DNA of 40,148 nucleotides from Promethearchaeota archaeon (GTDB lineage Archaea > Asgardarchaeota > Lokiarchaeia > Sigyniarchaeales > SOKP01), in NCBI GenBank assembly GCA_016926735.1, contig JAFGOA010000107.1:1-40148 (forward strand), written 5' to 3'. Positions within the stretch are counted from its first letter, which is position 1; each line of letters opens with the position of its first letter. The translations under genes were made by a program, and so were the position numbers. The notes beneath the pieces were generated by a model that made no database searches, was not told the origin of the DNA, and saw only the letters and a program-made list of their open reading frames with translations. This document shows positions 17,623-38,979 of the stretch, one piece after another.

Positions 17623-17627
17623 TAGTT

Positions 17628-21571: not shown

Positions 21572-21585
21572 CGTGAAATAACTGA
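21572..21585 (+). repeat. Boundary site type A
   Basis: Exact CGTGAAATAACTGA. Confidence 0.9.
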
Positions 21586-21629
21586 TAGAAAAATAATTCT
21601 AGAAAATATATAATTACATACAATTCTTA

Positions 21630-22496
21630 TTATGTTTTTAATCCAAAATCTTCTGTTAAAGACAAAAAAATTTTATCAAGTCTATTATAGTGGTCTTTAT
21701 CATCTCTAAAAAGTTTATTGAGAAAGGGAGATATAATTAAACCTGCTTCTTCTAAAATATTTTTTTTATTGATGAATTTAAATTGGTTATGAATTTTATC
21801 TACGATAGGTATTATCGTAGATTTGATAAAATATAATATAATTTGACAATATGTATTATGTATTAATTCTTTTTCTTCTATTGTCATTTCATGATTTTTA
21901 TGAACTATATTATTTCTTAAAGCATTGCAATTTATCAGAGAATCCTCAAGTTCTTCAGGAAAGTTCAATTCTTTTATTTTTTCAGGCATATACTTATTAT
22001 TTATCCCTTTTATTTCATTGTAATAATCTTCTAAATATGCAATTATCTTAATTAAGAATTTAAAATCATCAGAGTTAAGATATATCTTTTCAAGAGATTT
22101 TAAAGTATCCTTAATCAAATCATATGATATATCTTCTTTTAGTATAAATTCCACATCTCTAAAATAATCTGAGTAATCTTTAAAAGGTTTTTTGAATTCT
22201 TCTTTTTCATAAGATATATTCGGATTTTCAAGATTTATATGTGTTTTCTTTATTTTATTTACGATTTCCTTAATAAATTTTAATTCAAACCCACATTCAG
22301 GACAAAAAGTTATCCAATTTACAATAATTATTTTACTTGGAAAAAATCCTTCTTCGGTCATTAGTTTGGATGGCGTGTCCTTGAGAGGATATGTTGCACT
22401 ACGACCATCATAATGAAAATTTTGTAATGGATAAATTGTTGGAGGTATAAATTCTTTATTACAAAATGGGCATCTAATCTTTTTTACATCTTCCAT
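21630..22496 (-). CDS. Zn-ribbon plus HEPN-like domain protein
   Basis: CPFC...CPEC; RNNIVH fits the HEPN Rx4H motif. Confidence 0.6.
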   Translation of the reverse strand: MEDVKKIRCPFCNKEFIPPTIYPLQNFHYDGRSATYPLKDTPSKLMTEEGFFPSKIIIVNWITFCPECGFELKFIKEIVNKIKKTHINLENPNISYEKEEFKKPFKDYSDYFRDVEFILKEDISYDLIKDTLKSLEKIYLNSDDFKFLIKIIAYLEDYYNEIKGINNKYMPEKIKELNFPEELEDSLINCNALRNNIVHKNHEMTIEEKELIHNTYCQIILYFIKSTIIPIVDKIHNQFKFINKKNILEEAGLIISPFLNKLFRDDKDHYNRLDKIFLSLTEDFGLKT

Positions 22497-22635
22497 ATTG
22501 ATAATCTTCGAATCTTTGTCTATATCTATAATCTAGATTAAATACATAAAAATATTATGAAAAATAATTAATTGATAGAAAATAACAATTAGAATCTAAT
22601 ATAATATATGTGATATCATAAAAAATATAATTGCA

Positions 22636-22648
22636 TGTGAAACAATTA
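22636..22648 (+). repeat. Boundary site, degenerate type B
   Basis: TGTGAAACAATTA. Confidence 0.55.
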
Positions 22649-22712
22649 GAATAATTAATATCTAACTTATTGAAATCCATATTAAAGGGGTTTTTGGGGT
22701 AATTTGAGTTTA

Positions 22713-23732
22713 TTATGGAAACGTTATCACATCAACATCAGGATGATATTCCTTTAATCCCTTTAACCATTCTTTATATAGTTGTTTACTAACATTAACT
22801 TTAAATAATACACATATTAACCCATTTGGAAAATTTTGTTTGTATCTTAGACATTTATCAGCAATTGAAACTAAATCTTTATGAGACGTTGGTCCTTTGA
22901 TCTCAATAGCGATTCCTTTAACAACTATATCAGGTCTCGTGGAACCAACACTTACTTCTATTTTAGTATCAGGGAACTTAGATCTTAGAAATTGAGCTAA
23001 AGTGTCTTGATAATAGATTTCTTTATCATAGTGTCGAAAAGGTACGAATTCTAATATTACTTTTTTAACTTCTAATAATATTTTATTCCCATTTTTTTTG
23101 ATTTTATCTTTTAATTCTTTTACTTTCCATTCTGCTTTTATTCTTTCAATATCATTTAATATATCTTTTATATCAATGTGATTTCGCTTAGTAAAGGAAA
23201 TGATAGTATCTAACTTTAATCTAATTTTCAATATTGAAACGAGGTCTTCTCTCGTACGTTTTACCTCTTTCCAATATTCCTCACCAGAAGAATCATCTTC
23301 CTCCAAAATCGTTTTGTTTAAATTTATTTTCTTCTCCAAGCAGAGCTTTTTCAATTGAGTTTTTGTCATTCTAAGGAGGATTATACTTTTCCATTTACGA
23401 ATTTGAAATCTTTTTTTAGAAAAACGGACAACTTTCCTTGCACTCCTTATGATACCTCTTCCCATTTTCAGAGCAATATTTTTACCAAGGGACATCTGAC
23501 TATTCTTTGAATCTTTATAAATGAGCTCTTCATCTAAATTATTGGTTTTTAATTCTACAAAATCTTCATATTCCTTTTGGATTTCCTCTGGATTAATTTT
23601 AGTCAATTGTATTTTGTTTTTTCTCAATAAATCTTGATGTTCTCTGCATAATGGTTTATCAAATTCTTTAATTGAATATAAAAATTCTCCTTTAGTAATA
23701 TCCTTCTTGCAGATATTGCAATAATACCTCAT
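22713..23732 (-). CDS. Zn-finger plus PD-(D/E)xK nuclease
   Basis: CNIC...C..H N-terminus; RPDIVVKGIAIEIK C-terminus. Confidence 0.7.
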   Translation of the reverse strand: MRYYCNICKKDITKGEFLYSIKEFDKPLCREHQDLLRKNKIQLTKINPEEIQKEYEDFVELKTNNLDEELIYKDSKNSQMSLGKNIALKMGRGIIRSARKVVRFSKKRFQIRKWKSIILLRMTKTQLKKLCLEKKINLNKTILEEDDSSGEEYWKEVKRTREDLVSILKIRLKLDTIISFTKRNHIDIKDILNDIERIKAEWKVKELKDKIKKNGNKILLEVKKVILEFVPFRHYDKEIYYQDTLAQFLRSKFPDTKIEVSVGSTRPDIVVKGIAIEIKGPTSHKDLVSIADKCLRYKQNFPNGLICVLFKVNVSKQLYKEWLKGLKEYHPDVDVITFP

Positions 23733-23975: not shown

Positions 23976-23988
23976 CGTGAAATGGTTA
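23976..23988 (+). repeat. Boundary site, degenerate type B
   Basis: ATCAA-CGTGAAATGGTTA. Confidence 0.6.
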
Positions 23989-24254: not shown

Positions 24255-24328
24255 TTTTTATTTTTTCTTTTTTAAATTGAATCTTATTATTTTATAGCTT
24301 TTAATATAAGCAATTTTAACATAATCTT

Positions 24329-24342
24329 CGTGAAATAACTGA
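24329..24342 (+). repeat. Boundary site type A
   Basis: Exact CGTGAAATAACTGA. Confidence 0.9.
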
Positions 24343-24774: not shown

Positions 24775-24899
24775 TATCTATTTCTTTTTATTCCTTGATT
24801 AGAACTTTCTTTAGAATATTTTTGATTAATATAATAGTAATTTGAGTTCTAGTTAAATTTATGTTTTAAGACTTAGTATTTGAAGTTGGAATATTTCAT

Positions 24900-24913
24900 C
24901 GTGAAATAACTGA
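24900..24913 (+). repeat. Boundary site type A
   Basis: Exact CGTGAAATAACTGA. Confidence 0.9.
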
Positions 24914-25010
24914 ATATTTAACATTATAAAGAGGGTTCATACAAAAAATTATATTCTATTTTAATTTATAATAATTTGATATAAATAATATTAATTTATG
25001 TGAACAAATT

Positions 25011-25265
25011 ATGGGAACTGAAAAATCAAAAATATTACATGCTGAGCTTAAAGGAATATTATCATCTCGATTTGAAATAATTAAATCCGCATTGGGTATA
25101 CAAAATGATGCTGAAGTTGTTAGATTTTTAATCCAAAGGTATTATAAAGAACATCTAGAAGGAGAAGAAAAGTCAGCAAGAGAGGAATTAGAAAAAGATA
25201 GAGAACTTATTTCTAGATTTATGAATAGATATGGTGAAGAATGGAAAAAACTAGGTGAAGATTGA
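25011..25265 (+). CDS. Putative antitoxin (RHH-like) of the Doc toxin
   Basis: Small ORF overlapping doc; FEIIKSALGIQNDAEVVRFLI pattern. Confidence 0.65.
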   Translation: MGTEKSKILHAELKGILSSRFEIIKSALGIQNDAEVVRFLIQRYYKEHLEGEEKSAREELEKDRELISRFMNRYGEEWKKLGED

Positions 25266-25639
25266 TTATGTGGTTTCCTAGTGTAGAGTATATACTTGCA
25301 TTATTTAATGATCAAATCAGTTTAGGAACTTTAATGAATCGAAATGGATTAATATCTACTCTCGATAAATTAAAATGGGGAATTCCTTTTCATGATGCTC
25401 CAACTATATGGGAACAAGCAGCAATTCTTTATAAAGAAATAGTTGAGAATCATTATTTTTCAGATGGAAATAAAAGGATAGGTATTTTAATTATATATAT
25501 CTTCTTGTTTAAAAATGGTTATGTTTTTAATCCAAACGTAGGTGAGATTTATAATATAACTATGGATGTAGCTCAAGGGTTAAAATCATTTGAGGAATTA
25601 GTAGAATGGTTTAAAAAAAAATCAAAGAGAATAGAATAA
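25262..25639 (+). CDS. doc: Doc/Fic family toxin
   Basis: HYFSDGNKR matches the Doc HxFxDGNKR motif. Confidence 0.88.
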   Translation: MIMWFPSVEYILALFNDQISLGTLMNRNGLISTLDKLKWGIPFHDAPTIWEQAAILYKEIVENHYFSDGNKRIGILIIYIFLFKNGYVFNPNVGEIYNITMDVAQGLKSFEELVEWFKKKSKRIE

Positions 25640-25659
25640 TTAATTTTTATGTAAAATAT

Positions 25660-25673
25660 CGTGAAATAACTGA
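25660..25673 (+). repeat. Boundary site type A
   Basis: Exact CGTGAAATAACTGA. Confidence 0.9.
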
Positions 25674-25934
25674 GAAAGATATTATAGAGGATATTTAAGT
25701 ATGTTTTATACATATTTCAAAAATAACTGAAATATCAACTTATTTTTAATCAATGATTTTCATATGAAACAGAAGATATTTCTTAGTGTCCTATAATTCT
25801 TATATATCTCCATATCACCTTCTTTTATAATAATGTTTCTCCTCTCATAGTATGGTGATAATATAATAGAACCTCAACTCTTCCAAGAAAGAAACTCCCC
25901 ACAAAAAGAGAAGAAAACGCAATATAAAAAGCAC

Positions 25935-26357
25935 ATGGAAGAAATATCAAAGGATTTAGCATGTCCAAATGAACACTGTGAATCCTATGGAATTATTGGA
26001 AAAGATACCATCCTCTTTAGACGTAAATATGGAAATAAACCATCTCAAAATCTTTTTGTATGCAAAACATGTAAAAAAACCTTTTCTGAACGAAAAGGAA
26101 CTCCCTTTTTTGGGTTTCATTTACCTGAAGAGAAAATTATAACAATTATCCGTTGCCTTGTCGAAGGGAATGGCACACGGGCAACTGCTCGTATCTGTAA
26201 TGTCCATCGTGATACAGTGACCAAAATTATCCGTCGATTTGGAACGCACTCAGAACAAATATCTCGTCTCTTCCTTAAGAATTATCCTCTAAAAGAATGT
26301 CAATTAGATGAGATGTGGAGTTTTATTAAAAAAACAAAAAAATCTAACCCCCCTTGA
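25935..26357 (+). CDS. IS1-like transposase N-terminal part (Zn ribbon plus HTH)
   Basis: CPNEHC..CKTC, HTH GTRATARICNVHRDTV, ends in DEMWSFIKK. Confidence 0.85.
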   Translation: MEEISKDLACPNEHCESYGIIGKDTILFRRKYGNKPSQNLFVCKTCKKTFSERKGTPFFGFHLPEEKIITIIRCLVEGNGTRATARICNVHRDTVTKIIRRFGTHSEQISRLFLKNYPLKECQLDEMWSFIKKTKKSNPP

Positions 26358-27066
26358 ATACCAGGAAGGTGAATGTGGAGATGCGTGGATTTGGATTGCG
26401 TTTGATCCTATCCATAAAGTTGTTATAGCGTATACAGTTGGAAAGAGAACACTTTCAAAAGCAAAAGAATTGCTCCATACTCTTCGGAACTGCGTTTCAG
26501 AGGAAATCCCTTATTTCACAAGTGATGAATTAGACTATTATACTTGTGCTATTGCAGAAGAATATGGAATTGAAAAAAGCTTTCCGAACACTGAAAAGCG
26601 AGGACGTCCAAAAAAACCCCTCAAGGAAATCCTTTCGTCACTTGTATATGCCCAAGTTCATAAACACCGGGAGCGGGGCAGAGTAAAAAAGATTGATACC
26701 CGTCTTCTTTTCGGCACCGCATCTCAGATAAAAGGAATTCTTTTAGACTCTGTTGTGAGTAATTATGTTAATACTACGTTTGTTGAGCGAAATAACCGTA
26801 CTATTCGACAACAAAATGGCAGATTTCAGCGTAAGACCTTACAATTTTCCAAGAAAAAGGCATTATTTTCTTCCCAATTGGCCCTTTTTTTTGGATATTA
26901 CCATTTCATTCGTCCCCATCAATCCTTACAGATAAAAAATAACATGCTTTCTGAGAACTGGGAAAAACGGACACCATTTATGAGTGCTGGGATTGTGGAT
27001 CATATCTGGACCTTTCGAGAATTATACTTTTATAAGAGCTATAGAAAGAGAGGAGGTGAAGCTTAA
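26308..27066 (+). CDS. IS1-like transposase catalytic DDE part (frameshifted)
   Basis: WIWIAFD, FTSDELDYY, T.FVERNN.TIRQ...RKT..FSK. Confidence 0.85.
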   Translation: MRCGVLLKKQKNLTPLEYQEGECGDAWIWIAFDPIHKVVIAYTVGKRTLSKAKELLHTLRNCVSEEIPYFTSDELDYYTCAIAEEYGIEKSFPNTEKRGRPKKPLKEILSSLVYAQVHKHRERGRVKKIDTRLLFGTASQIKGILLDSVVSNYVNTTFVERNNRTIRQQNGRFQRKTLQFSKKKALFSSQLALFFGYYHFIRPHQSLQIKNNMLSENWEKRTPFMSAGIVDHIWTFRELYFYKSYRKRGGEA

Positions 27067-27080
27067 CAATTATAGGACAC

Positions 27081-27302
27081 TAAGATTAATTCACTTAATT
27101 TATTTGTATATATAAGTTTCATTTGCAAATCCACAAGATAATTATCATCTTCATTTCGAAATAGATTACCATATATTTTTTCAACCTCTGAATCTTTAAG
27201 ATAAAATTTATCATGTACAAATTGATAATCGCATTCGGTTTTTAATAAATTAAACTGCTCAAGATATGATATTAGTTCTTTAAATAAATTTTCTTTTGAC
27301 AT
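27081..27302 (-). pseudogene. Small hypothetical gene whose 3' end is interrupted by the IS
   Basis: The called ORF runs into the IS right TIR; removing the IS continues the frame to a TGA at 25760-25762. Confidence 0.5.
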
Positions 27303-27413
27303 TTATATATTTTTAATGTATTTGATTTAAAACCTAGACAGAATAAAATGATAAAAATAAGAAATTGAATATCTAAAAATTATATAAGTATTATAAAGAA
27401 ATTAATATTTTAA

Positions 27414-27426
27414 CGTGAAACAGTTA
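27414..27426 (+). repeat. Boundary site type B
   Basis: CGTGAAACAGTTA. Confidence 0.85.
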
Positions 27427-27652
27427 GATAATAATTTATGAATTAAATTATATGATTTAAAAAAAATTACAAATTAATTACAGAAAAATATAAAAAATAT
27501 AGATATCTTGGCTCTATAATCTTTAATAGAAAACCCAAATATAATAAAGAATATCATTATTATGAAAAAGATCTTATGATATAGTTATCCCTTTATCAAG
27601 AATCACCATAATTGGATTCTTAACTATGTTTTTTTTTTTCAAATTTATATAA

Positions 27653-28441
27653 TCATAAATTTCGAATGAATTTAACCAACTCTGATGCTTCATTTATCTT
27701 TTTTCTAATTATTATCGTCATTTCCTCCTGTTGGTTTTTAAACGTATCATTTATATCATATGCCATAATTATTGCTTGAAATATGTTTCCTAAATCGTGA
27801 GAATATTTATCCTTTAATTTATTTTTATCCCTTTGAATTGAAATAAGTTTTTTTTCTAATAATGCTACTATGGCAATCAAAATAATTATAGTATAATAAA
27901 TGATATTCATAGATAGATTATAGATTGTAAAATTGTATCCTGAATGATTTAAAAAATTAAAGATACCTGCGAATATTATGGGAATAATACTCAAACAAAA
28001 AAAAATGTAAATAACGTTCTTTTTTTTTAAAAAGATTTTAACTAACATTAAAACAATAATAATTATGAATATTTCAATAACTAATTCAAATATAAATAAA
28101 AGATTAGTTAAATTAAATAAAATAAAAAAGAATCCTATTGATCCTATTTTAGATGTAGAAACGTTTCTTTGTAAAAAAAGATGATAATATTCTCTAAAAA
28201 CAATAATAAATATCCAAAAGGCTCCAATAAGATAATTTATATCAACAATAATTAGTTTAGGACCTCCTGGATTACATATTTCACCTCCAAGATCTATAAG
28301 AGAACCAATTGCAGAAAAAATTAGTACTATTAACCAATATTTTAAATCCTTACGTTTTAAAAATGATATAATAATAACTATTATGGATATGATTGCTAAA
28401 ATCCCAATTATTATTTTTAATTCTAAATAGCATTGAGAGAT
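27653..28441 (-). CDS. Multi-pass membrane protein with C-terminal HisKA-like H-box and no ATPase domain
   Basis: Frame stays open for more than 130 codons upstream of the called ATG at 28048, with several TM helices; SHDLGNIFQAI H-box. Confidence 0.65.
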   Translation of the reverse strand: MSQCYLELKIIIGILAIISIIVIIISFLKRKDLKYWLIVLIFSAIGSLIDLGGEICNPGGPKLIIVDINYLIGAFWIFIIVFREYYHLFLQRNVSTSKIGSIGFFFILFNLTNLLFIFELVIEIFIIIIVLMLVKIFLKKKNVIYIFFCLSIIPIIFAGIFNFLNHSGYNFTIYNLSMNIIYYTIIILIAIVALLEKKLISIQRDKNKLKDKYSHDLGNIFQAIIMAYDINDTFKNQQEEMTIIIRKKINEASELVKFIRNL

Positions 28442-28633
28442 ATTTCCTCAACTCCGTCATTATAATATAGTTAAAATTAATATGTATTAATATTCTAATT
28501 AATTTTATTAAATATTTTCCTTAAATTAGAATTGTCACATTTAAAGCTAAAATATGAAAAAAAAAAATAAAAATAAATTCTTTTAGAATACCAAACCTTT
28601 AGATAATCATTTTTTGATATTAGAGAGTATCAT

Positions 28634-28647
28634 CGTGAAATAACTGA
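28634..28647 (+). repeat. Boundary site type A
   Basis: Exact CGTGAAATAACTGA. Confidence 0.9.
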
Positions 28648-28670
28648 GAAAGAATTTATAATTAATATCT

Positions 28671-29612
28671 TTAAACAATAAATTGACTAAAGATATAATC
28701 TTTAGGTGGGTCTATAGGTGTTTCACAATCACTACAAAGTGAATAACATTGTTTTAATTCTTCAGGAGATATTAAGTCAATTATATCTTTAAAAATCCGC
28801 ATACTTTTTAATTCGAACATTCCTGATTTTAATTTTGTTTTTGCAGTAAATATTATAAAACAATCCTGATGAATTGCATTATTAAGTAAATAATGGAACT
28901 TAATCAGTTCTGAATCAGGTTCTACATTCAAATTTCTTAGAGAATTAATATTAAAATCTTCATTAATAATTAGATCATTACCAAAGTAAGCAAACATCAT
29001 TATTGTACTATTATCAGGAGAAGTTTCTATAATTTTTAAGACATCACTTCTCAATGAAAGATAATCAGATTTAAGTAGTATTTTATTCTCTGAATATTTT
29101 TGATAAATATCATAAAGGTTTTTATTTTCTATTTCTCCCAATAATTTAAAATTGTCATCCCCTAAATAATTGTATATTAGGTCATAATAATCCACAGGAT
29201 CTCCCTCATCAATATTATATTTTTCAATCAAGAGTTTAAGATAATATTCAGCATATTTATTACCAAGAGATATAGGTTCAATATCTGATGTATCCGAATA
29301 TGTTAAATAATTCCAACCACATCCACTCCTATAACTAGCTTCTTTATTTCCATCATATTCTTTAAGAAAATCACCTACCTTTTTATATAAACTTATTAAA
29401 AAATATTTTGAAAATGGAATAAGCTCTCCAGAGTGATCATAGGGGTAATCATATCTGTGATCTATTATAAATTTAGGATTTTTTTCAATATACTCAACGA
29501 TTCTTTTAAAGATTTCTTTTTTCCATTTCTCATGAAGCTCTAATGAAATTTTATTATCTTCTATAAAATGTTGAATATCATTTTCCGTGAGAATTGATCC
29601 TTCTTTGATCAT
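28671..29612 (-). CDS. Hypothetical protein
   Basis: 313-aa ORF bounded by repeat sites; C-terminal CSDC. Confidence 0.7.
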   Translation of the reverse strand: MIKEGSILTENDIQHFIEDNKISLELHEKWKKEIFKRIVEYIEKNPKFIIDHRYDYPYDHSGELIPFSKYFLISLYKKVGDFLKEYDGNKEASYRSGCGWNYLTYSDTSDIEPISLGNKYAEYYLKLLIEKYNIDEGDPVDYYDLIYNYLGDDNFKLLGEIENKNLYDIYQKYSENKILLKSDYLSLRSDVLKIIETSPDNSTIMMFAYFGNDLIINEDFNINSLRNLNVEPDSELIKFHYLLNNAIHQDCFIIFTAKTKLKSGMFELKSMRIFKDIIDLISPEELKQCYSLCSDCETPIDPPKDYIFSQFIV

Positions 29613-29745
29613 TTTAATCAGAATTTAATTATTAAAGAAATTATTTTATTCATATATTTTAAAAATATACTCCTTGAACAATTAGTATTATACTATGATA
29701 AAATATGTATAGAATTCCTTTTCTCTTGATATTTAAGATAATGAT

Positions 29746-29759
29746 CGTGAAATAACTGA
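29746..29759 (+). repeat. Boundary site type A
   Basis: Exact CGTGAAATAACTGA. Confidence 0.9.
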
Positions 29760-29836
29760 CTATCATATTTTTATTATTTTATTGAATTATATACTCGAAA
29801 ACTTTAAATAATTCGAGTATTTATATTTTTAATAGA

Positions 29837-30088
29837 ATGACTATATCAGAAGAAAAAATGGTTTTAAAGGTTGGATCTAAAGGAGAAATCTTTCCTCCAA
29901 AAGAGATTAGAGAAAAATTAGGTTTAAAACCAAATCAACCGATTGTTATGACAATCCATCAAGATAAGTTAATAATTAGAAAATTATATTCTTTAGATGA
30001 AATATTAAAAACGCCTCCTAAAGTAAAAATAAGTTATCATGCTTGGAAACAATTTAAAGACGATTTAAATGAGGAATATGAAAAATGA
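29837..30088 (+). CDS. vapB: AbrB/MazE/SpoVT-family antitoxin
   Basis: KVGSKGEIFPPKEIREKLGLKP...LIIRK; overlaps the PIN gene. Confidence 0.85.
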   Translation: MTISEEKMVLKVGSKGEIFPPKEIREKLGLKPNQPIVMTIHQDKLIIRKLYSLDEILKTPPKVKISYHAWKQFKDDLNEEYEK

Positions 30089-30576
30089 AAATATTATTTG
30101 ATACTTCTTATCTTCTTCCTTTTATTAAAATTAAAATAGAATCTATATCTGACGATATTCTTCTAAATCTTCTCAATAATAAATCTAATGAATATTATTA
30201 CTCTGATTTATCATTATTTGAATTGACTGCAAAAGCTTTTAAGTTAATAGTAGATAATAATCAAATCAATTCACAAGATTTAATGATAGGAATAGATGCT
30301 ATACAAAATGATTCAAGATTACAATGTATTACATATATATATAATCCATTAATTATTGAATTAGCTATAGAATTCAAAAGAATTTACAATGATACTATTG
30401 ATTGTATTATTTTTGCATCAGCAATATGTAATTGTGATTGTATCATAACAATGGATCTCATATTTTATGAAAATATTAAAAATAATGATACCTTATTAGA
30501 AAAAATTCAATCAATTAATAAGAATTTTAAATTTTGGTTTAATGATCTTGTTAATTCCCAAGAATCTATAAATTAA
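30085..30576 (+). CDS. vapC: PIN-domain VapC toxin
   Basis: ILFDTSYL, SLFE, D.IDCII.ASA, IITMD. Confidence 0.85.
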   Translation: MKILFDTSYLLPFIKIKIESISDDILLNLLNNKSNEYYYSDLSLFELTAKAFKLIVDNNQINSQDLMIGIDAIQNDSRLQCITYIYNPLIIELAIEFKRIYNDTIDCIIFASAICNCDCIITMDLIFYENIKNNDTLLEKIQSINKNFKFWFNDLVNSQESIN

Positions 30577-30613
30577 TATTGCTGTAAATAATATATTTCT
30601 ATATATCTATCAA

Positions 30614-30626
30614 CGTGAAACAGTTA
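30614..30626 (+). repeat. Boundary site type B
   Basis: CGTGAAACAGTTA. Confidence 0.85.
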
Positions 30627-30730
30627 TCATAATAAAAATATAATATATTTTGTCTAAAATTAGTCTAAATTCTATTTAAATAATAAGATTTACATAATAA
30701 TCTTAAAATATATCCTTAAAAGAGAATTTA

Positions 30731-30964
30731 ATAACAATTTTTATCAAAATAAAAGATGGGTCCGAATTTAAAATAGATTGTGATGAGATTAAAAGAGTAA
30801 TTAATAATAAAAAATATTTAGAGATTATGTTTAAAAAAGAGATGATTAAATTTGAAAAGGATCAGTTGGATTCTTTTGAAATTACATTTCCAAAAGATAT
30901 TAAAAATAGTGACCCTAATGCATATGAAACTCGTTTAATAGTAATTCTTTCGAATATAATTTAA
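30731..30964 (+). CDS. About 77-aa hypothetical protein, possible ATA start
   Basis: Open frame 30707-30964 (ITIFIKIKDGSEFKIDCDEIK...) filling the gap between two repeat sites. Confidence 0.45.
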   Translation: MTIFIKIKDGSEFKIDCDEIKRVINNKKYLEIMFKKEMIKFEKDQLDSFEITFPKDIKNSDPNAYETRLIVILSNII

Positions 30965-31002
30965 GATATTGAAATATTATTTTTATAACTTAGATATATC
31001 AT

Positions 31003-31016
31003 CGTGAAATAACTGA
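31003..31016 (+). repeat. Boundary site type A
   Basis: Exact CGTGAAATAACTGA. Confidence 0.9.
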
Positions 31017-31371: not shown

Positions 31372-31437
31372 TATATAAAAGTTTGAGGTGTAGTTTTCAA
31401 ACTATTTTTTTCTTCCATCAAATACGTGAAGCAGTTA
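31372..31437 (+). repeat. About 65-bp direct repeat, copy 1, ending in a type B site
   Basis: Near-identical to 38915-38979; CGTGAAGCAGTTA at 31425 overlaps the DUF5615 stop codon. Confidence 0.9.
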
Positions 31438-31794
31438 TTCATTTAAAATATCTTTTCTAATTCTTATTTGATTAATTTCTACTATCAAGATTTTACCAAT
31501 AACTTTATTTAATTTAAAACTTTCCATAAATTCTTTAAAAAGAGATTTTACTGCATTTTTACCTTGACCTTTAGGTCGAAGAATTATAATTCCATAAAAA
31601 TTATCATTGATATTCGCAAAATCATAATCGAGAGTAATTAATATTCTATTTTCTTTAAAGCAAATTTGATTTAAAGATTTATCATCAATTCCTGTGATAT
31701 TTTCATGATAAACAGAATCTACTTGATGTTCTTCTATTTCTTCAATAACTTTTTTAAGAATCCAAGGAGTATTTTCATCTAATTTAAATTTCAC
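31435..31794 (-). CDS. DUF5615 PIN-like toxin
   Basis: MKFKLDEN, RILITLDYDF; paired with DUF433. Confidence 0.85.
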   Translation of the reverse strand: MKFKLDENTPWILKKVIEEIEEHQVDSVYHENITGIDDKSLNQICFKENRILITLDYDFANINDNFYGIIILRPKGQGKNAVKSLFKEFMESFKLNKVIGKILIVEINQIRIRKDILNE

Positions 31795-32044
31795 TTTGTT
31801 GCTCCTGAACTTTTGTTATTGATATAATTTCTTCTCTTGCTAATACAGCACCATATTGAAGGGCAATTTGGATATGTTCTTTTTTTAAACTTGGGTAATT
31901 TTCAAGTATTTCTCCTTCATTCATTCCTTCAGCTAAACAGTCCAAGATAACTGAAACCATTACCCTTGTTCCTTTAATATGTGCCTTTCCATGACAAATA
32001 TTTGGATTGAAGGAGATATATTCTTTCCAATTTAATTGAACCAT
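31784..32044 (-). CDS. DUF433 antitoxin
   Basis: PNICHGKAHIKGTRV.V..IL..LAEG....EIL..YPSL. Confidence 0.9.
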   Translation of the reverse strand: MVQLNWKEYISFNPNICHGKAHIKGTRVMVSVILDCLAEGMNEGEILENYPSLKKEHIQIALQYGAVLAREEIISITKVQEQQSEI

Positions 32045-32121: not shown

Positions 32122-32135
32122 CGTGAAATAACTGA
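32122..32135 (+). repeat. Boundary site type A
   Basis: Exact CGTGAAATAACTGA. Confidence 0.9.
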
Positions 32136-32243: not shown

Positions 32244-32726
32244 TCATTGTTCATTTTTCACAATTTTATCAAGCTTATGTTTAATTACAAAATCAATTAA
32301 GAATTTTTCTATATCTTCAGGACCATCACAGAAAAGTTCACTAGAGTCATTCATTATTTTTTTTTGCATCTGTGTTAATTGTCGTAATTGTTCTTGACGT
32401 TTTTTTCTATTTTCATTTGGACCAGTTTCTCCAAAAAATCGATTTATTTCTTCCATCATTTTAGTTAAAGTTTTTGATCCAACAATTTTTAAATATTCAG
32501 GAATTAGAAAGGCTGAATTTCCGGTAGAATTCCAATAATATTGTTCTAATCCTCCGTTTCCAACTTCATAAGAGAATATCATTAGATCGACAAATATTTT
32601 TTCTTCTTGTGAAAAATTATCCCATGCAATCATTTCTTCTTTTTTCATCATTTTCATATACAACTTATCAAGATTCACCATAATTGTAAATAAGAAGAAA
32701 TTATTTATTTTTCCTTTGATAAGCAT
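32244..32726 (-). CDS. DUF4375/DMP19-family protein
   Basis: EVGNGGLEQYYWNSTG motif; true start may be a downstream Met. Confidence 0.75.
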   Translation of the reverse strand: MLIKGKINNFFLFTIMVNLDKLYMKMMKKEEMIAWDNFSQEEKIFVDLMIFSYEVGNGGLEQYYWNSTGNSAFLIPEYLKIVGSKTLTKMMEEINRFFGETGPNENRKKRQEQLRQLTQMQKKIMNDSSELFCDGPEDIEKFLIDFVIKHKLDKIVKNEQ

Positions 32727-32773
32727 TATTTTACAGATTATAAAAATATAAAAATAAAAAAAAGATTGATATG

Positions 32774-35700
32774 TTATAATTCCGCAGGAAATTTATCAAT
32801 TAATCCCACATAATATTGAGCAATAAATAGAGAATCTAATGTATTTATCAGTCCATCACCATTAACGTCTGCAGCTTCAGGAAAGAAGCCCTCTGGATTC
32901 AATCCTACAAAATATTGAGTTGTGAGTGTGGCATCTAAGGCATTAATTAATCCATCATTATTTACATCACCAAGGGTGATATTAGGATGAACGATTACAT
33001 GACTGTTTATACCAACAGGATTATCTATAGTATCTGTCATTTCATTTGCTAAAGTTAGTATATCTATTGCTAACACACATTCACCTACTCCAATCGTCTC
33101 CCAGGTTATGATGAGAAAATCTAAATTTGGACTTGGAAATGGACCTAATGCATCAAATCCACTCACTCGAGCTACTCCTTCTGAATTATTGATATCAATA
33201 GAACTTATAAATCCATCAGGTCCAGCAATAATATCTACTATCCTTAGTATAGTAGGATTAAAAGTAAATTCAAATCCATATGCAGCAACTCTATGACGTC
33301 CTGAATCTATATATACATGAGTATCAAAGATATCTCCTACTTTTTTATCTGCTACAGAACTGATGCTCACATTTCTCATGGGAATAGGAGTTGTTTTTAC
33401 ATGGCTATTTATGATATAAGTAGTCTCTATAGGTTCTCCAGAATCGTCTATTAAAGAAATTTTATCAAAAGTTATTGCACTTTCACCTACTCCAATTGCT
33501 TTCCAAGATATTGAGAAAAGGAACAGGTTTAAACCAGGGTCTATCCATGACTCAGTATATCCAGCTACTTTTATCCATCCTTCTGAATCATGTTTCTCCA
33601 CAGATGTTATAAATCCAGCTTGTGCACTATAAAAATTCGTTGGAACAACGATATTGGGATCAAAAGTAATGTTAAAATAATATCCAGTTAATTTCTGACT
33701 TCTTGAATCGACATTAACACTTGTAGAGAATGTATCTCCCACATACTTATCCGTAACAGAACTTATCCTGACATCACCATGTACTGTTATATTGCAATTT
33801 ATACCATTAGGAGTACCTATAGTATTTGTGGAAATATCTGCTAAAGTTATTATATCTATTTCAACCATACTTTTCCCTACAGAAATTGCCTTCCATGAGA
33901 TTGTTAGAAAGTCTAAGATTGCACTTGGAAATGGGCCTAATGCATCAAATCCACTCACTCGAGCTACTCCTTCTGAATTATCAATATCAATAGAACTTAT
34001 AAATCCATCTGGTCCAGCAGTAATATCTACTATCCTCAAGATTTTAGGATTAAAATGAAATTCAAATCTATATGCTCCAACTCTCTGAAGTCCTGAATCT
34101 ATATACACATGAGTATCAAATATATCTCCCACAAGCTTATCCGTAGTAGACCCTATCATCACACTTCCAGGTGTCCCCATAATTGGATTAGAATTGATAT
34201 GGATATTATTATCCTCATTAATCTCCAATACATCATTGTAGCAGTCTACATGACACATTAATTTATAGTATCCAGAGGGTAAGGTTATTGTCCCATTACA
34301 GTTTATAGATTTTATTTCGTTATGGTTTAATCCATCAATATAACATGTACCGAGCTCATAAACTTCCTCATTACTTACCGCAGTATATTTGACATAAAAT
34401 CCATTTGCAGTTCCATATCCAAAATTACCGATATTAGCCCATAGATCATAAGAAAAACTGATTTCATCACTTCCAGAGAAAACATTACTAAAATCACATA
34501 AAATATCATCTATAGAATAAAAGTCCGGCAAGTATTTTTGTTTGGTAAGATTTAAAGGATAATACATGATATTATTGTCTTCATTTAGTTCAATAACTCG
34601 ATCATGATAATCTATAACACACATTATTTCATACTCTCCAAATGGTAATGTAATTCGCCCTTCTTCAGTCGAAGATTTTATCTCAAATTTATCTAATCCA
34701 TTAAAACAATCATCCCCCAGATAATATGTATTATCACCTTTAACTGCAATAAAATCAATAGAAAATAGTTCATTAGTTGAAAACCCAAAATTAGAGATGA
34801 TCGTTGATATCTTATAAGTGAAACTTATCTCATCTCCTTCTTCCAAGAAAATATCACTTAATTCACAATCAAGTCTCAAAGGAATAAAGTTTGGTGCATA
34901 TTCTTCTCTCAAAAGTATTACATGATTATTGTTAGTATGGACATTATTATTTTCATTCGATTCAGTTACCTCATTAGCATAATCTATAGTACATATTAAT
35001 TCATATTCCCCAAATGGAACGGTTCTATAGCATCCTCTTATATTATTAATATATTTTACTTCATTTTGGTCCAATCCCCCCACATAACCATAACCTCCTA
35101 GACTATAAACACCTTCATCACTTTTCAAATCATATTGAATCCAAAAGTCTTCTGAAGTTTCACATCCATAATTTTTAACATAAGATGAGATATTATAAGA
35201 GAATTCTATTTCACCATCAATTGTTATACTTGTATCACTTATTATAAGTTCAACATCACTGTAAGGCATAATATCCGGTAGCAAAATATCTTCGGAAACT
35301 ACAAAAGGATAAGAATCACAATAATAATTATTATCATCATCCACTTCATTAATGCTATTATCATAATCTACAGAACAAGCTATTTCATATTGCCCAAATG
35401 GTAAGGTTATTTGTCCTCGACAAGTTGCTAATTTTAGTTCATTAGGATTTAAACCCTCCATATAATATTCTCCTAATACATATATACTATCACTAGTTTT
35501 TATTTCTCCTAATTCATATGGACTTTCACTACTTTTTACTTCTCCTAATTCATATGAACTTTCAATACTTTTTGCTAGATATCGAATATAAAATCCCTCT
35601 GAAGTACCTACCAGTCCTTTATTAAATATCTCAGAGGATATCTCATAATCAAATGTTAATTCATTATCTCTAAAGATAATATTACTTTTTGTAATTTCAA

Positions 35701-38700
35701 TATCATGTGAAATAAGATCTGGAGAAAAATACTCCTCTCTAAGAATTAAAGGATTAGGATTGGTGTGAATATTATTAACCTCCGTCATTTCATACACTTC
35801 ATTATAACAATCTATAGACTGCCCTAATTTATATTCCCCTAATGGTAAGGTTTTTTTTCCTTCACACACTATATTTTTCTGTTTACCACGGTTTAACCCA
35901 TTTATATAGCAGATTCCTAGATCATAAGTTGTATCATTGCTTATTGCTGTATATTGAACAGAAAAACCTGCTGCATCTCTTCCTCCTTGATTATAAACAC
36001 TAGACGATAAACGATAAGAAAACGATACATTATCACCTTCAATAAGAACTTCGCTTAGAGCAATTTCAACTTCATTATTGTTAGATAAAAATGTTAAATC
36101 GACTGGTTCAGATTCTTGTATAATTACAGCAGTAGGATCTCCAAAAAGATTTAAACACGCGCACGCGTGTTCCATGCTTGGATCACCCACTAACCAATTT
36201 GGTTTTTGAAGTATAAAATCCTTTTTTGCATCTAGCAATGCTTTACCAATTTTAAGTATACCCTCTCCAAATTGAGCATCATAAAATTCACGTCTCAAAA
36301 GACAACTCGCAAAATTTGTATTTTCTCCATTATATTCTACCATACCTGTGCTTCCAATAACAGCAAATGCTGCATTTGGAGAAGATAAATATCTACCTCC
36401 AATAGAATATCCCGGATAAGCAAAAACATCACATCCATCAGTATAGAGAAAAAAAGGTTTAGAATTTGCTAGACGATCTATATCATCAGGATATAATAAT
36501 CTCATATTGTACCACCTATTACTATGACCTACATGAGTTATAATATGAATATTATTATTTATTATAGGTATGAGATCTTCTTTATTCCACATAGATTCTC
36601 GATCATAAAGAGTTGTTATATTGTAATATTGATCAAATTGCCGTGTAGTGTAACCATGACTAAGACAAAAACCATTTGTTTCATTATTATAAATTAATTC
36701 ATCTAATTCATAACTACCCCAATATGGGATGCCCTCAAAAGTACCCCCATATTCACCTACTATTAAAACACTATATAAATAATCATCATCTCTACTTTCC
36801 ATTTCCAACTCATGGAGAATTGTTTTTCTTATGAAGTTTGAAAGCTCCTCTTCTGTATCAACAGGAGCTCTTCCTACTGCGACTTCTGTGTAACTATCAT
36901 GGGTAAAAAAAAATCTCCAATTGTCTCTATCGTCTTTAAATTCACCATAGTTCCCATCATAATCAGCATCCCAAGAACCATCTAAGTAAGCGTAATATAG
37001 ATCCGTATAAGTAAATACTTCATCTATGTAAAACATCCTCATAGGTACCTCATTTTCATCCCCTATTATAAAGACATACTCGGTACACCAAGAATAATAG
37101 GCATCTTTTATAAACTCTCTTATTTTTTCTTCTTCGTCCCTAAAATATTTATATTCTGCGTAAATTTCCTCAATAGTTATAATTATAGGATTATATCCTT
37201 GAAAAGATTTATACTCAATTAAATCTTGTAAAGTATATGGTCCATTGGAATATTTTAAGAATTTATTAGTAATAATTACATAGTCATGTGGCCCTTGATC
37301 TTTATCAAAAATACTCTGTTGTGGTCTAATAATTACCATTGGATCTCCAAACACTTCATAACCTAAAAAATCTTCAACAAGACGATAAGAAGTATCATAT
37401 GATTTTAAGACATCATATTTTGCGTCGGTTAATGCCCTACTAATCTCATCTATACCCTCTCCGAATATAGCATCATAGAATTCACGATATAACTTCTGCC
37501 CTGGAATATCTGTAGGATCATCTGGCGTATAAGTAGGAAAACTCCATGCATATTCTGAAGTTCCAATTGCAGCAAATGCTCCATTTGGAGAAGTTATTAG
37601 ACGCTCTCCTATAGAATCATATGTAAAATGGAATCCATTAGCATTGTGAATATAATTCTGGTCAATCTCATCAGCATAATTAAAGGCATAACTTTGATAG
37701 CTATATAGAAAGAATGGTTTCTTGACGTTTATATATGGAATATCATTTATATTCAGTTTCATCATATTATCATGTAGGCTATTAAGTTCATCTTCCCAAT
37801 AAACATAACCTGGTCCATATCCATCTTCAGTCGCAGTACAAAATGACGTCTCTGGACGTCCAAAATGATTTAGTATATGCACCCCATTGTTGCTCTCAAT
37901 AATATCTAATAAAGCATATGGAGTCCACGTTTTAACATAGGGATAATTGTAATTTGAGCGTTCATAAAGAGTCTTAAAGGTATACTCATTAGAAATCTTC
38001 CTTGTTTGATACCCATTAGCAGAACAATACTCATATCCATTATACATATATAATTGGTCCAAATAATCACCACCGTATACTGCTATTGGATCACCAGGAT
38101 CAGAACCCGGATCTAGTTGGTATCCATAAAATTCACCTACCATCAAACCATTATATAGATAATTAGTATTGTAATTTCTTAATTCTTGTTCATGAGCGAG
38201 GGTTTTTCTCACGAAATTTGAAACCTCCACTACTGAACCAACAGGGGCTCTCCCAAGATAGACATCAGCATGATAACCCCAAATCGCTTGGTTCCGTAGT
38301 ATCTCCCAATCCTCTACCTCACCATATACACGATTATTATTATCATCCCAATCATTATTTATAGTTGCATAATATTGATCTGAATAATAAGTTACATCAT
38401 CTGGACCCCATTCTTGCCCTGGTGGAGGGTCACCTCCTGAACAAAAATACCTTGGAGGGATAATATTTGAATCTCCTCCTAAAAGTACATATTGAAGGCC
38501 CCAACCAAAATACTTATCTACTATAAATGCTCGTATTTTTTCTGCATAATCTCTCCCATCATAACGGGAATATATCTCTTCAACAGTCACTATTGTTGCG
38601 CTAATACCTTGTGCAATTTTACTGTCAATAAGAGTATGAAATGAATATGCTCCATTATAATCTTTTAGGTCCTTATTAGTAATAATAGCATATGTAAAAA

Positions 38701-38851
38701 GTTGAAGGGGATCATCAAAAGAAAATATTTTAGGCTCTTTAAAAATTACTTTATCTTGTCCATTAGGAATAACCATCTCTAATAAAAACGCCGAGGAAGA
38801 TATAACTAAAAAAAAAGTTAAAAATATTCCAATCTTTGTTTGTTTTTTCAT
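32774..38851 (-). CDS. Secreted or anchored protein: two peptidase C25 (gingipain) domains, four CARDB-like repeats, three cohesins, one dockerin
   Basis: N-terminal hydrophobic helix; YVLLGGD/GRAPV/FGDP motifs twice; D..N.V.E.NE.NN repeats; cohesin repeats; GDVNNDG.IN.LDA...ADVNGDG dockerin. Confidence 0.85.
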   Translation of the reverse strand: MKKQTKIGIFLTFFLVISSSAFLLEMVIPNGQDKVIFKEPKIFSFDDPLQLFTYAIITNKDLKDYNGAYSFHTLIDSKIAQGISATIVTVEEIYSRYDGRDYAEKIRAFIVDKYFGWGLQYVLLGGDSNIIPPRYFCSGGDPPPGQEWGPDDVTYYSDQYYATINNDWDDNNNRVYGEVEDWEILRNQAIWGYHADVYLGRAPVGSVVEVSNFVRKTLAHEQELRNYNTNYLYNGLMVGEFYGYQLDPGSDPGDPIAVYGGDYLDQLYMYNGYEYCSANGYQTRKISNEYTFKTLYERSNYNYPYVKTWTPYALLDIIESNNGVHILNHFGRPETSFCTATEDGYGPGYVYWEDELNSLHDNMMKLNINDIPYINVKKPFFLYSYQSYAFNYADEIDQNYIHNANGFHFTYDSIGERLITSPNGAFAAIGTSEYAWSFPTYTPDDPTDIPGQKLYREFYDAIFGEGIDEISRALTDAKYDVLKSYDTSYRLVEDFLGYEVFGDPMVIIRPQQSIFDKDQGPHDYVIITNKFLKYSNGPYTLQDLIEYKSFQGYNPIIITIEEIYAEYKYFRDEEEKIREFIKDAYYSWCTEYVFIIGDENEVPMRMFYIDEVFTYTDLYYAYLDGSWDADYDGNYGEFKDDRDNWRFFFTHDSYTEVAVGRAPVDTEEELSNFIRKTILHELEMESRDDDYLYSVLIVGEYGGTFEGIPYWGSYELDELIYNNETNGFCLSHGYTTRQFDQYYNITTLYDRESMWNKEDLIPIINNNIHIITHVGHSNRWYNMRLLYPDDIDRLANSKPFFLYTDGCDVFAYPGYSIGGRYLSSPNAAFAVIGSTGMVEYNGENTNFASCLLRREFYDAQFGEGILKIGKALLDAKKDFILQKPNWLVGDPSMEHACACLNLFGDPTAVIIQESEPVDLTFLSNNNEVEIALSEVLIEGDNVSFSYRLSSSVYNQGGRDAAGFSVQYTAISNDTTYDLGICYINGLNRGKQKNIVCEGKKTLPLGEYKLGQSIDCYNEVYEMTEVNNIHTNPNPLILREEYFSPDLISHDIEITKSNIIFRDNELTFDYEISSEIFNKGLVGTSEGFYIRYLAKSIESSYELGEVKSSESPYELGEIKTSDSIYVLGEYYMEGLNPNELKLATCRGQITLPFGQYEIACSVDYDNSINEVDDDNNYYCDSYPFVVSEDILLPDIMPYSDVELIISDTSITIDGEIEFSYNISSYVKNYGCETSEDFWIQYDLKSDEGVYSLGGYGYVGGLDQNEVKYINNIRGCYRTVPFGEYELICTIDYANEVTESNENNNVHTNNNHVILLREEYAPNFIPLRLDCELSDIFLEEGDEISFTYKISTIISNFGFSTNELFSIDFIAVKGDNTYYLGDDCFNGLDKFEIKSSTEEGRITLPFGEYEIMCVIDYHDRVIELNEDNNIMYYPLNLTKQKYLPDFYSIDDILCDFSNVFSGSDEISFSYDLWANIGNFGYGTANGFYVKYTAVSNEEVYELGTCYIDGLNHNEIKSINCNGTITLPSGYYKLMCHVDCYNDVLEINEDNNIHINSNPIMGTPGSVMIGSTTDKLVGDIFDTHVYIDSGLQRVGAYRFEFHFNPKILRIVDITAGPDGFISSIDIDNSEGVARVSGFDALGPFPSAILDFLTISWKAISVGKSMVEIDIITLADISTNTIGTPNGINCNITVHGDVRISSVTDKYVGDTFSTSVNVDSRSQKLTGYYFNITFDPNIVVPTNFYSAQAGFITSVEKHDSEGWIKVAGYTESWIDPGLNLFLFSISWKAIGVGESAITFDKISLIDDSGEPIETTYIINSHVKTTPIPMRNVSISSVADKKVGDIFDTHVYIDSGRHRVAAYGFEFTFNPTILRIVDIIAGPDGFISSIDINNSEGVARVSGFDALGPFPSPNLDFLIITWETIGVGECVLAIDILTLANEMTDTIDNPVGINSHVIVHPNITLGDVNNDGLINALDATLTTQYFVGLNPEGFFPEAADVNGDGLINTLDSLFIAQYYVGLIDKFPAEL

Positions 38852-38914
38852 TTTTTTAATTTTTAATATTGAATTATTAGATATATACAAAATTAATTAT
38901 AGGAATATTTTCAC

Positions 38915-38979
38915 TATATAAAGTGTTGAGGTGTAGTTTTCGAACTATTTTTTCTTCCATCAAATACGTGAAACAGTTG
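38915..38979 (+). repeat. About 65-bp direct repeat, copy 2, ending in a type B site
   Basis: CGTGAAACAGTTG at 38967. Confidence 0.9.

Follow-up and report, generated by a model that had tools for sequence, protein, structure and literature searches.

Paired 13-nt motifs in a Lokiarchaeial genome as probable junction half-sites of a site-specific recombination system between small accessory gene cassettes

What are two short motifs, which share one arm and carry exactly inverted cores, doing between the genes of an Asgard archaeon? The window analyzed here is the whole of contig C147 (JAFGOA010000107.1; 40,148 bp) from the 3.88-Mb, 26% G+C assembly GCA_016926735.1 of a Promethearchaeota archaeon of the Lokiarchaeia. 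We call this source genome G000, and other genomes of its genus G001, G002 and G003. An earlier note on the window described two classes of site, CGTGAAA-TAACTG (type A) and CGTGAAA-CAGTTA (type B), and took the hexamer to be a crossover or target core. Here, we describe the anatomy of these sites, their conservation across the family, and breakpoints between genomes that fall at the hexamer. We put the probability at roughly 70% that the 13-mers belong, as junction half-sites, to a family of site-specific recombination sites in this Lokiarchaeial family. On the evidence of their sequence context, these half-sites appear to mark joints between small accessory gene cassettes. From the architecture of the sites, we infer that a tyrosine recombinase acts at them.

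Both classes are far more frequent in the window than chance would allow. Type A (CGTGAAATAACTG, arm CGTGAAA plus core TAACTG) has 8 exact copies and 2 more at one mismatch, and type B (CGTGAAACAGTTA, arm CGTGAAA plus core CAGTTA) has 2 exact copies and 2 more at one mismatch. With up to one mismatch allowed, the 10 type A matches compare with 0.01 expected, a count of 10 being reached in 0 of 100 shuffles, and the 4 type B matches with 0.02 expected. The division into two classes is thus confirmed, as is the placement of type B at 27414 and 30614 (exact) and at 31425 and 38967 (one mismatch). All 14 copies lie on the + strand; the core is exactly inverted between the classes while the arm keeps its orientation, as had been noted. 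By itself, the arm CGTGAAA is found 15 times in the window, for an expectation of 1.75; 13 of these copies are on the + strand. The sites are as follows.

3919..3952, facing arms CGTGAAA ... TTTCACG, 20 nt apart (arm search)
9821..9833, + strand, decayed type A half-site CGTTAAATAACTG, one mismatch, with a truncated paralogue of the 24913 cassette on its right
13647..13659, + strand, decayed type A half-site CTTGAAATAACTG, one mismatch
21572..21584, + strand, type A half-site, exact match, first exact one of the array
23976..23988, + strand, B-like half-site CGTGAAATGGTTA, 2 mismatches to type B
24329..24341, + strand, type A half-site, exact match
24900..24912, + strand, type A half-site, exact match
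25660..25672, + strand, type A half-site, exact match
27414..27426, + strand, type B half-site, exact match
28634..28646, + strand, type A half-site, exact match, left end of a 2,369-bp segment missing from contig C55 of G003
29746..29758, + strand, type A half-site, exact match
30614..30626, + strand, type B half-site, exact match
31003..31015, + strand, type A half-site, exact match, right end of the segment missing from G003
31425..31437, + strand, B-like half-site CGTGAAGCAGTTA, one mismatch to type B, with a 25-nt repeat upstream
32122..32134, + strand, type A half-site, exact match
38967..38979, + strand, B-like half-site CGTGAAACAGTTG, one mismatch, with the same upstream repeat as at 31425

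Throughout the window, A and B sites are intergenic regardless of the direction of the neighboring open reading frames (ORFs), which argues against their being promoters or terminators. An exact arm and core without the second arm are seen in 31 distinct half-sites of type A and 10 of type B. The base directly after the core is A in 25 of the 31 A half-sites and G in 8 of the 10 B half-sites, and ATCAT directly precedes the arm in 20–25 of the 31 A sites and is absent before B arms. These biases just outside the 7-mer and core indicate that the right side of the half-sites is not entirely free. The decayed A sites at 9821 and 13647 suggest that the array formerly extended further. The facing arms at 3919-3952 read CGTGAAA-AAACGG-8 nt-TGGGGG-TTTCACG, the minus strand giving CGTGAAA-CCCCCA, a member of a TGGGGG/CCCCCA core family; either two half-sites abut here, or a complete site has taken up an insertion. 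The one-mismatch B copies at 31425 and 38967 have about 60 nt of upstream sequence in common, which forms a separate repeat. We considered a coding origin for this shared sequence and rejected it, as the minus-strand ATG meets stops after 17–27 codons. On the minus strand it contains, at 31382-31406 and 38925-38949, a 25-nt motif, AATAGTTCGAAAAGTACACCTCAAA, followed by the TATA-box-like CCTTTATATA; this motif, of which the genome has 26 copies, probably serves as a shared promoter module.

How A and B relate becomes apparent elsewhere in the genome. At C222:22794-22813, G000 contains a complete site, CGTGAAA-TAACTG-TTTCACG, whose + strand has the type A sequence and whose − strand has the type B sequence. 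Because of this double reading, A can be understood as the left half, and B as the right half, of one site with palindromic arms. DNA joined in at the hexamer leaves two junctions, one of the left arm with the core and one of the core with the right arm. Starting from the right arm, the second of these presents that arm followed by the reverse-complemented core, and so the core seems inverted and the arm does not. The idea that the two classes represent two polarities of one site is thereby upheld. The sites had also been described as one-armed and non-classical, and in this respect the description was wrong: they are classical symmetric sites that have been split, with one complete copy at C222:22794 and others with a variant arm.

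Across G000, exact 13-mers number 14 for type A and 3 for type B, and there are 5 exact complete sites of the form CGTGAAA-N6-TTTCACG. In a census of all 1,605 TAACTG/CAGTTA hexamers of this genome, 43 adjoin at least one arm and 7 adjoin both, as compared with 0–3 for each of eight control hexamers. The census also turned up a second arm type, TGCAAAA/TTTTGCA, with the same TAACTG core, and hybrid complete sites in which a CGTGAAA-type and a TGCAAAA-type arm stand on either side of TAACTG. Such hybrids, joining two arm types across one core, are the expected product of recombination at the core. Sites with the TGCAAAA arm lie at C85:18822, C85:21338, C85:22592, C125:19414, C161:2443 and C159:5617. 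On C85, complete and hybrid sites are spaced 1.2–2.5 kb apart, and the cassettes there sit between complete sites.

TAACTG is not the only core. Further families occur in G000 and G002, again as reverse-complement pairs: TGGGGG/CCCCCA, GGACAG/CTGTCC and TATATG/CATATA. The expectation that only two hexamers follow CGTGAAA therefore fails genome-wide, where there are many core families, and holds within the TAACTG/CAGTTA site family. Two other kinds of sequence adjoin CGTGAAA arms in G000. The first is a 39-nt repeat, CTTTCACTTCATGAAnnnnTCATGAATAAAGAT-CGTGAAA, found 25 times, on contigs C1, C15, C24, C41, C153, C167, C171 and C188 (e.g. C1:16377-25136, minus strand). The hexamer that follows it differs from copy to copy (at least 20 hexamers), and its inner TTCATGA/TCATGAA stem is conserved around a variable loop. 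Copies flank small cassettes, the arrays converge on C1, and the copy at C41:63273 is a complete site. The second is a motif, ttCATGGAAAA-N12-TTTTAATGGAAAA, located 4 nt 5′ of the arm in 8 copies, 4 of them at complete sites (C38:7925, C38:17055, C85:24019, C112:8359, C158:8941, C168:2079, C168:3012 and C222:26714). Its copy on C222 accompanies the outermost site of the array there, adjoining a flank that is conserved in G003. This accessory motif may be the binding site of a helper protein.

If DNA is exchanged at the hexamer, homology between related genomes should break there. Contig C55 of G003 tracks the window over 27085-28650 and resumes at 30976, and at its junction, which lies inside the common ATCATCGTGAAATAACTGAGAA, the left flank of site 28634 meets the right flank of site 31003. 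The difference is the following segment.

28647..31015, three cassettes, 2,369 bp, present in the window and missing from G003:C55 (genome comparison)

The complete site on C222 is likewise a mosaic. Its left flank, arm and core are as in G002:C34, where a small empty cassette comes next; its core, right arm and toxin-antitoxin cassette are as in G002:C20, where another left arm precedes. The two blocks of homology overlap solely on AAATAACTG. Two further C222 cassettes are found again in G002, with homology beginning at the site and the same A/B types at the ends. A contig from another metagenome (X2, record 14) tracks the window to 30626, where a B site ends, and then diverges, and a contig of run X3 (record 21) matches the window only from 30997 on, 6 nt before an A arm. 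Within the window, the paralogy of 24263-24342 with 3853-3932 (the left flanks of 24329 and 3919) stops at the core, and that of 24891-25234 with 9813-10152 begins 9 nt before the arm of 24900 and extends rightwards. Mapping of breakpoints between strains, which the earlier note had proposed as a check, thus finds joins at the hexamer (G003:C55; C222 versus G002). A gene-less mini-cassette recurs in G002:C34 (locus L057, positions 224-363, 4192-4290, 12143-12280 and 1169-1828), always with an A-type core on the left and a B-type core on the right; three copies are about 100–140 bp and one is about 660 bp. Some of these copies combine two core families (TAACTG with CATATA).

An empty and an occupied version of one site can be compared in another family of the same order. 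In the closed genome G038, an integrated element separates CGTGAAA-CAGCAA from CGTGAAA-TTGCTG, which is on the opposite strand at a distance of 12.9 kb.

L092 (G038:C1:2604000-2622000) 4761-17650, integrated element of 12.9 kb (family scan, flank comparison)

The element is bounded by terminal inverted repeats of 16 bp and carries two tyrosine recombinase genes and a gene for a VapE-like protein of 1013 aa. Contig C113 of the sister genome G036 contains the empty site, flankA-CGTGAAA-TTGCTG-TTTCACG-flankB, and its flanks are homologous to the outer flanks in G038 (78% identity over 128 + 1010 bp). TTGCTG stands at both joints in G038 and is the sole sequence common to the insert ends and the target. 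This comparison shows that complete sites are insertion targets, that DNA is joined at the hexamer, and that half-sites are the resulting junctions. Together with the breakpoints between strains and species, the duplication of the hexamer at both ends of the insert bears out its earlier designation as a crossover or target core. A comparable junction occurs in G040, of the same genus as G038, where an integrase domain lies about 940 bp downstream of it; among loci around weaker PF00589 matches, an arm-plus-core junction like that of G038 was found in 1 of 18 (G040:C269 only). A further complete site, CGCGAAA-TACCTA-TTTCACG, is seen in the G038 region, 30 bp behind an integrase gene.

The palindrome is widespread among relatives. 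Of 41 relatives, 29 have an exact CGTGAAA-N6-TTTCACG, and 0 have the reversed control. In a sample of 201 Asgard genomes that are at least 85% complete, 57 contain it, while the control matched 1 genome. By taxon, they include 47 of the 51 further members of the source family, the highest count being 14 copies in one genome, and 9 of the 149 genomes outside it. The arms are invariant and the spacers variable, with weak conservation beyond the 7-mer; 28 distinct complete sites, including C222:22794, have exact 7-bp arms. The same spacers are found again in different species of a genus, with non-homologous flanks, which means that the hexamers form shared families. A continuum of hexamers, which the earlier note had named as evidence that would speak against its proposal, is not what these genomes contain. 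The TAACTG family is restricted to the source genus, with A/B copy numbers of 14/3 in G000, 6/3 in G001, 12/12 in G002 and 4/1 in G003; a single A copy occurs in 6 of 37 other relatives, which is about the rate of the reversed control.

Invariant arms around a free spacer are also typical of the operators of dimeric regulators. Conceivably, then, some conserved DNA-binding protein uses the palindromes as operators, or they serve as a host signal of another kind. The 13-mers would in that case be regulatory half-sites at which mobile DNA happens to land; ATGGAAAA repeats found upstream of some complete sites would be in line with regulation. We think this very improbable. The half-sites conserve the supposedly free spacer while losing the second arm, one strand is kept whatever the direction of the neighboring gene, and homology between strains breaks at the sites. 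A search of the window for Rfam families and tRNAs returned 0 of each, which argues against a host signal of this sort and leads us to reject a structured RNA or tRNA as the target.

We therefore favor a model based on recombination. A complete site would have two copies of an arm that ends in CGTGAAA, the second of them inverted (TTTCACG), on either side of a 6-bp asymmetric overlap. This hexamer would serve as the strand-exchange (overlap) region and would recombine only with partners of the same hexamer, each hexamer thus defining a compatibility group; TAACTG would be the group that has spread in this genus. Insertion at a complete site would yield arm, core and foreign DNA at one end (type A) and foreign DNA, core and inverted arm at the other, and on the opposite strand this second junction would read as arm plus reverse-complemented core (type B). 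The array in the window would then be a string of accessory cassettes (toxin-antitoxin pairs, a DMP19-like gene, orphan ORFs), each bringing its own arm. A pair of sites of like polarity could recombine to delete or capture cassettes. For an A and a B site on one strand, the cores are opposed and only inversion would be expected, giving a complete site and an armless core.

Several observations weigh against this model as it stands. A single insertion sets the two arms on opposite strands, whereas the arms in the window all lie on one strand. The arrays of G002 also read A,B,A,B with all arms on one strand, for which a single insertion is insufficient. Extra inversions, or captures in both polarities, must therefore be assumed. 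One route could be inversion between a complete site and an armless core copy (L-T-R ... C-z -> L-T-... L-C-z). Another could begin with an inversion of this kind that flips the core of a complete site, followed by capture into that site. In the sequencing run from which the assembly derives, a single contig covers 26912-31410 unbroken. The joints of Logan contigs from this run have sides of only 20–23 letters, none falls on a site, and they provide no evidence of rearrangement; the part that these contigs leave uncovered carries no information. On contig C120 of G001, a VapBC-like cassette homologue, at 81% identity, is without TAACTG boundaries, and the homology stops 30–40 bp inside the window's sites. 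Lastly, the G038 element has arms of its own (AAGAATAAA-type inverted repeats) that differ from CGTGAAA, and its terminal inverted repeats and 6-bp duplication are also expected from a transposase.

This last point deserves attention, since the hexamer might be a target-site duplication produced by a transposase that aims at CGTGAAA-N6-TTTCACG. The G038 insert, with its 16-bp inverted repeats and a direct duplication of the 6-bp target centre, looks the part, and in Acinetobacter an insertion sequence (IS) family reportedly targets Xer sites (PMC10132070). Such an origin nonetheless seems very unlikely for the sites as a whole. No transposase family was detected among the 6 ORFs of the G038 element that were scanned, and two of these are the tyrosine recombinases. 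Duplication of an arbitrary target would not give one hexamer linked to an arm at 43 places in G000, on cassettes with their own arm. A Y1 HUH transposase was not found in G000, and the IS1-family copy in the array lies inside a cassette, not at the sites.

Which enzyme might act here? Inverted arms around an asymmetric 6-bp centre, with junctions and compatibility set by that centre, are the layout of tyrosine recombinase core sites; serine recombinases exchange at a 2-bp centre. An invertase or resolvase of the serine type is accordingly a very poor candidate. Three PF00239 genes in G000 could supply one, but one adjoins an 889-aa ORF that is, by eye, a Tn3-type transposase, the other two adjoin ORFs that by eye are TnpB-like (IS607-type), no CGTGAAA site lies in the stretches searched around the three genes, and a 6-bp asymmetric core between inverted arms is the textbook tyrosine arrangement. 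G000 has one PF00589 gene, a 307-aa ORF on C228 that scores as a XerA equivalog (240.1 bits on NF040815, cut-off 220) and adjoins an ORF resembling Orc1/Cdc6 by eye. XerA is the single match in 14 of the 24 family genomes searched, including genomes with 10–14 complete sites. In Pyrococcus abyssi, XerA cuts where a 6-nt spacer meets the arms and, in vitro, recombines half-site substrates that have only one arm (PMC3646895); archaeal XerA is of the homodimer type, with no partner needed in vitro (PMC2958812, PMC3646895, PMC8371274). Given that the motifs are recombination sites, XerA would be the leading candidate, at about even odds. The alternative is that integrases of mobile elements act in trans.

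A number of findings temper the case for XerA, whose binding and catalysis at these sites would be predictions. The arrays examined (the window, C222 and, by eye, C1) neither contain nor adjoin a recombinase gene, and a site of this kind lies within 1.5 kb of xerA at 0 of 30 loci. PMC8371274 describes XerA sites as single-copy; G000 has 5 exact complete ones. The closed genomes G032 and G038, of the same order, encode XerA and lack the exact palindrome, and their matches at up to 2 mismatches are at the level of the reversed control. Candidate dif sites in these two genomes were set aside, as the best 1-mismatch matches look coding and are mutually non-homologous. Moreover, the only insert with an enzyme on board, the G038 element, brings its own integrase.

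It is also possible, though in our view doubtful, that the sites are real and XerA is uninvolved: they would be attachment sites for the integrases of viruses or plasmids, past or present, and the arrays described here would be inert scars. The sole case in which an enzyme is on the spot is the G038 element with its own tyrosine recombinases, with a like junction in G040, and the two XerA-encoding genomes that lack the exact palindrome fit this alternative as well. A Lokiarchaeum provirus reportedly excises and has a tyrosine-recombinase-like gene, and the outward primer at one of its ends finishes in TTTTTCGTGA, which resembles the arm context here (preprint 10.64898/2026.02.13.705702). This Fylgjavirus provirus primer had no match in IMG/VR or in 151 genomes of the order. 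Palindrome matches in IMG/VR (118+, on unrelated viral contigs) were discarded as being at chance level for a collection of that size. On the other hand, XerA is the sole tyrosine recombinase encoded by G000 and by most genomes of the family, with their up to 14 intact complete sites, and the arms of the G038 element are not those of the family. Inert scars should decay, yet G000 has 14 exact A copies, and both classes are present in 4 of 4 genomes of the genus. The contents of the cassettes are listed below by the sites that border them.

21572 (A) to 23976 (B-like), two orphan ORFs (ORF list and family scan)
23976 (B-like) to 24329 (A), 353 bp, no long ORF (ORF list)
24329 (A) to 24900 (A), one orphan ORF (family scan)
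24913..25659, + strand, cassette with an 84-aa ORF at 25011-25265 and a Fic/DOC-family ORF at 25262-25639, a toxin-antitoxin-like pair (Fic 39.1 bits, cut-off 24)
25772..27085, + strand, IS1-family insertion inside the cassette from 25660 (A) to 27414 (B) (DDE_Tnp_IS1 match; copies on C213 and C93)
27414 (B) to 28634 (A), small ORF, no family above cut-off (family scan)
28634 (A) to 29746 (A), one orphan ORF (family scan)
29837..30576, + strand, MazE/AbrB-type antitoxin at 29837-30088 and PIN-like toxin at 30085-30576, in the cassette from 29746 (A) to 30614 (B) (family scan)
30614 (B) to 31003 (A), empty cassette (ORF list)
31003 (A) to 31425 (B-like), no notable gene (ORF list)
31435..32044, − strand, DUF5615 (31435-31794) and DUF433 (31784-32044), a toxin-antitoxin-like pair in the cassette from 31425 (B-like) to 32122 (A) (family scan)
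32244..38890, − strand, large cassette from 32122 (A) to 38967 (B-like), with a DMP19-like ORF at 32244-32726 and a 2038-aa protein at 32774-38890 (family scan)

The MazE_antitoxin match scores 28.5 bits, over its cut-off, and the PIN match 23.1 bits, slightly below the cut-off of 23.6. Peptidase_C25, CARDB, cohesin and dockerin matches characterize the 2038-aa protein. The IS1-family element has a helix-turn-helix ORF at 25935-26357 and a DDE_Tnp_IS1 ORF at 26308-27066 and is not part of the site system. No recombinase family was detected among the 20 ORFs of the array and its flanks, the sole DDE gene being that of this element. Most cassette genes have no paralogue in the genome, and those that exist are scattered (tblastn of 16 window ORFs against G000); only fragments of array genes recur in G001–G003. 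Directly left of the first exact A site, at 20331-21467 on the minus strand, is a gene for a 378-aa protein without a paralogue in the genome. By eye, it has a zinc-ribbon-like start and about three GIY-YIG/T5orf172-like repeats, and the Pfam GIY-YIG family matches it in 2 stretches. Further upstream, window 3-8676 holds a defence-like cluster with an AAA_5 ATPase and McrBC component, a NurA-like and HerA-like pair, and a homologue of DruA (Druantia); a sugar-modification cluster also lies upstream of the array.

Serial, co-oriented sites that separate small accessory cassettes, rich in toxin-antitoxin pairs, together with a capture site that is regenerated, bring to mind integron arrays. Integrons have been reported from 75 archaeal genomes, with enrichment in Asgard archaea and only 6 IntI (Ghaly et al. 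2022, PMC9668308), and so one could suppose that the sites are attC sites recombined by IntI. We consider this highly improbable, on a par with a serine recombinase. The only tyrosine recombinase of G000 scores 85.6 bits on TIGR02249 against a cut-off of 265, and 56.4 on NF011946 against 435. As single strands, the sites fold no better than shuffles (10 sites with flanks, z −0.37 to +1.42), and the same is true of three A-to-B mini-cassettes (z −1.61 to +0.62). At 13–20 bp, the sites are not structured elements of tens of bases, and the genes between them run in both directions. Unlike integrons, including those of archaea, the arrays have no IntI and no folded attC, and instead have short core sites of the double-strand type with a palindromic parent.

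Closer parallels are found among Xer-associated systems. The Xer-exploiting elements known as IMEX, which include the CTX, TLC and VGJ phages of Vibrio and the gonococcal genetic island, lack an integrase and keep one arm and the centre of a dif-like site, with a degenerate second arm; they insert at a complete host site, may form arrays, and leave half-good junctions (PMC5357621). The elements of our array similarly have no recombinase of their own, and the half-sites keep one arm and the central region. IMEX, however, are bacterial, and use XerC/XerD and a single dif, whereas the system described here belongs to an Asgard archaeon, and one genome can hold as many as 14 complete sites, each with its own hexamer. 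The units also differ from IMEX phages in being gene cassettes of 0.35–7 kb, and their use of XerA would be a prediction. Archaeal IMEX are not named in the parts of PMC8371274 and PMC5357621 that we drew on.

The pdif modules of Acinetobacter are accessory modules, often toxin-antitoxin, with Xer-type sites and a 6-bp spacer, which are reportedly shuffled between replicons without a dedicated enzyme. The cassettes between complete sites on C85, and the alternating A,B,A,B core polarity in G002, resemble this arrangement. As a rule, pdif sites are complete and two-armed, and alternate in whole orientation; those in the window, by contrast, are one-armed, with all arms on the + strand and only the polarity of the core varying. 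In the R64 shufflon (Rci, sfx), sites consist of a conserved core and one conserved arm, the other arm being variable; they are inverted, located in the 3′ end of one gene beside the recombinase gene, and support inversion only. The conserved core and single arm are shared with the sites described here, whose arms are direct and which are intergenic, with no recombinase nearby. Archaeal XerA/dif offers inverted arms, a 6-bp spacer and cleavage at the spacer borders (PMC2958812, PMC3646895 and PMC8371274), the first two of which are seen in our sites. The dif site, which we compare by its description only, has 11-bp arms and is single-copy according to the same sources, whereas here 7–8 bp are invariant (12 in A arms), copies are multiple and spacers diverse. 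In the main texts of the literature searched, we found no description of the motif, of archaeal Xer-exploiting elements or Xer-type cassettes, or of such arrays in Asgard archaea.

Taken at face value, the arrays offer a concrete and testable mechanism for the gain and shuffling of accessory genes (toxin-antitoxin, defence-linked and surface-protein genes) in Asgard archaea. They account for assembly breaks in these islands, and the combination of arm and hexamer provides a simple rule by which the limits of cassettes and their points of insertion could be located across hundreds of Lokiarchaeial genomes. Cultured Lokiarchaeum strains, along with a provirus known to excise, make the mechanism accessible to experiment. 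Were XerA the enzyme, the system would be the first archaeal parallel to Xer-exploiting elements in the literature that we searched, and one recombinase would serve many addressable sites, possibly a set of orthogonal recombination sites. We tentatively entertain a broader possibility, while judging it the less likely outcome: Lokiarchaeia of this family may practice host-driven gene capture without a dedicated integrase. XerA would then serve several landing pads (up to 14) with common arms and private 6-bp addresses, and mobile cassettes bearing one arm and an address would be captured, excised and inverted at the matching pad. Should this be true, an integron-like platform would have been built on a chromosome-resolution enzyme in the archaeal lineage closest to eukaryotes.

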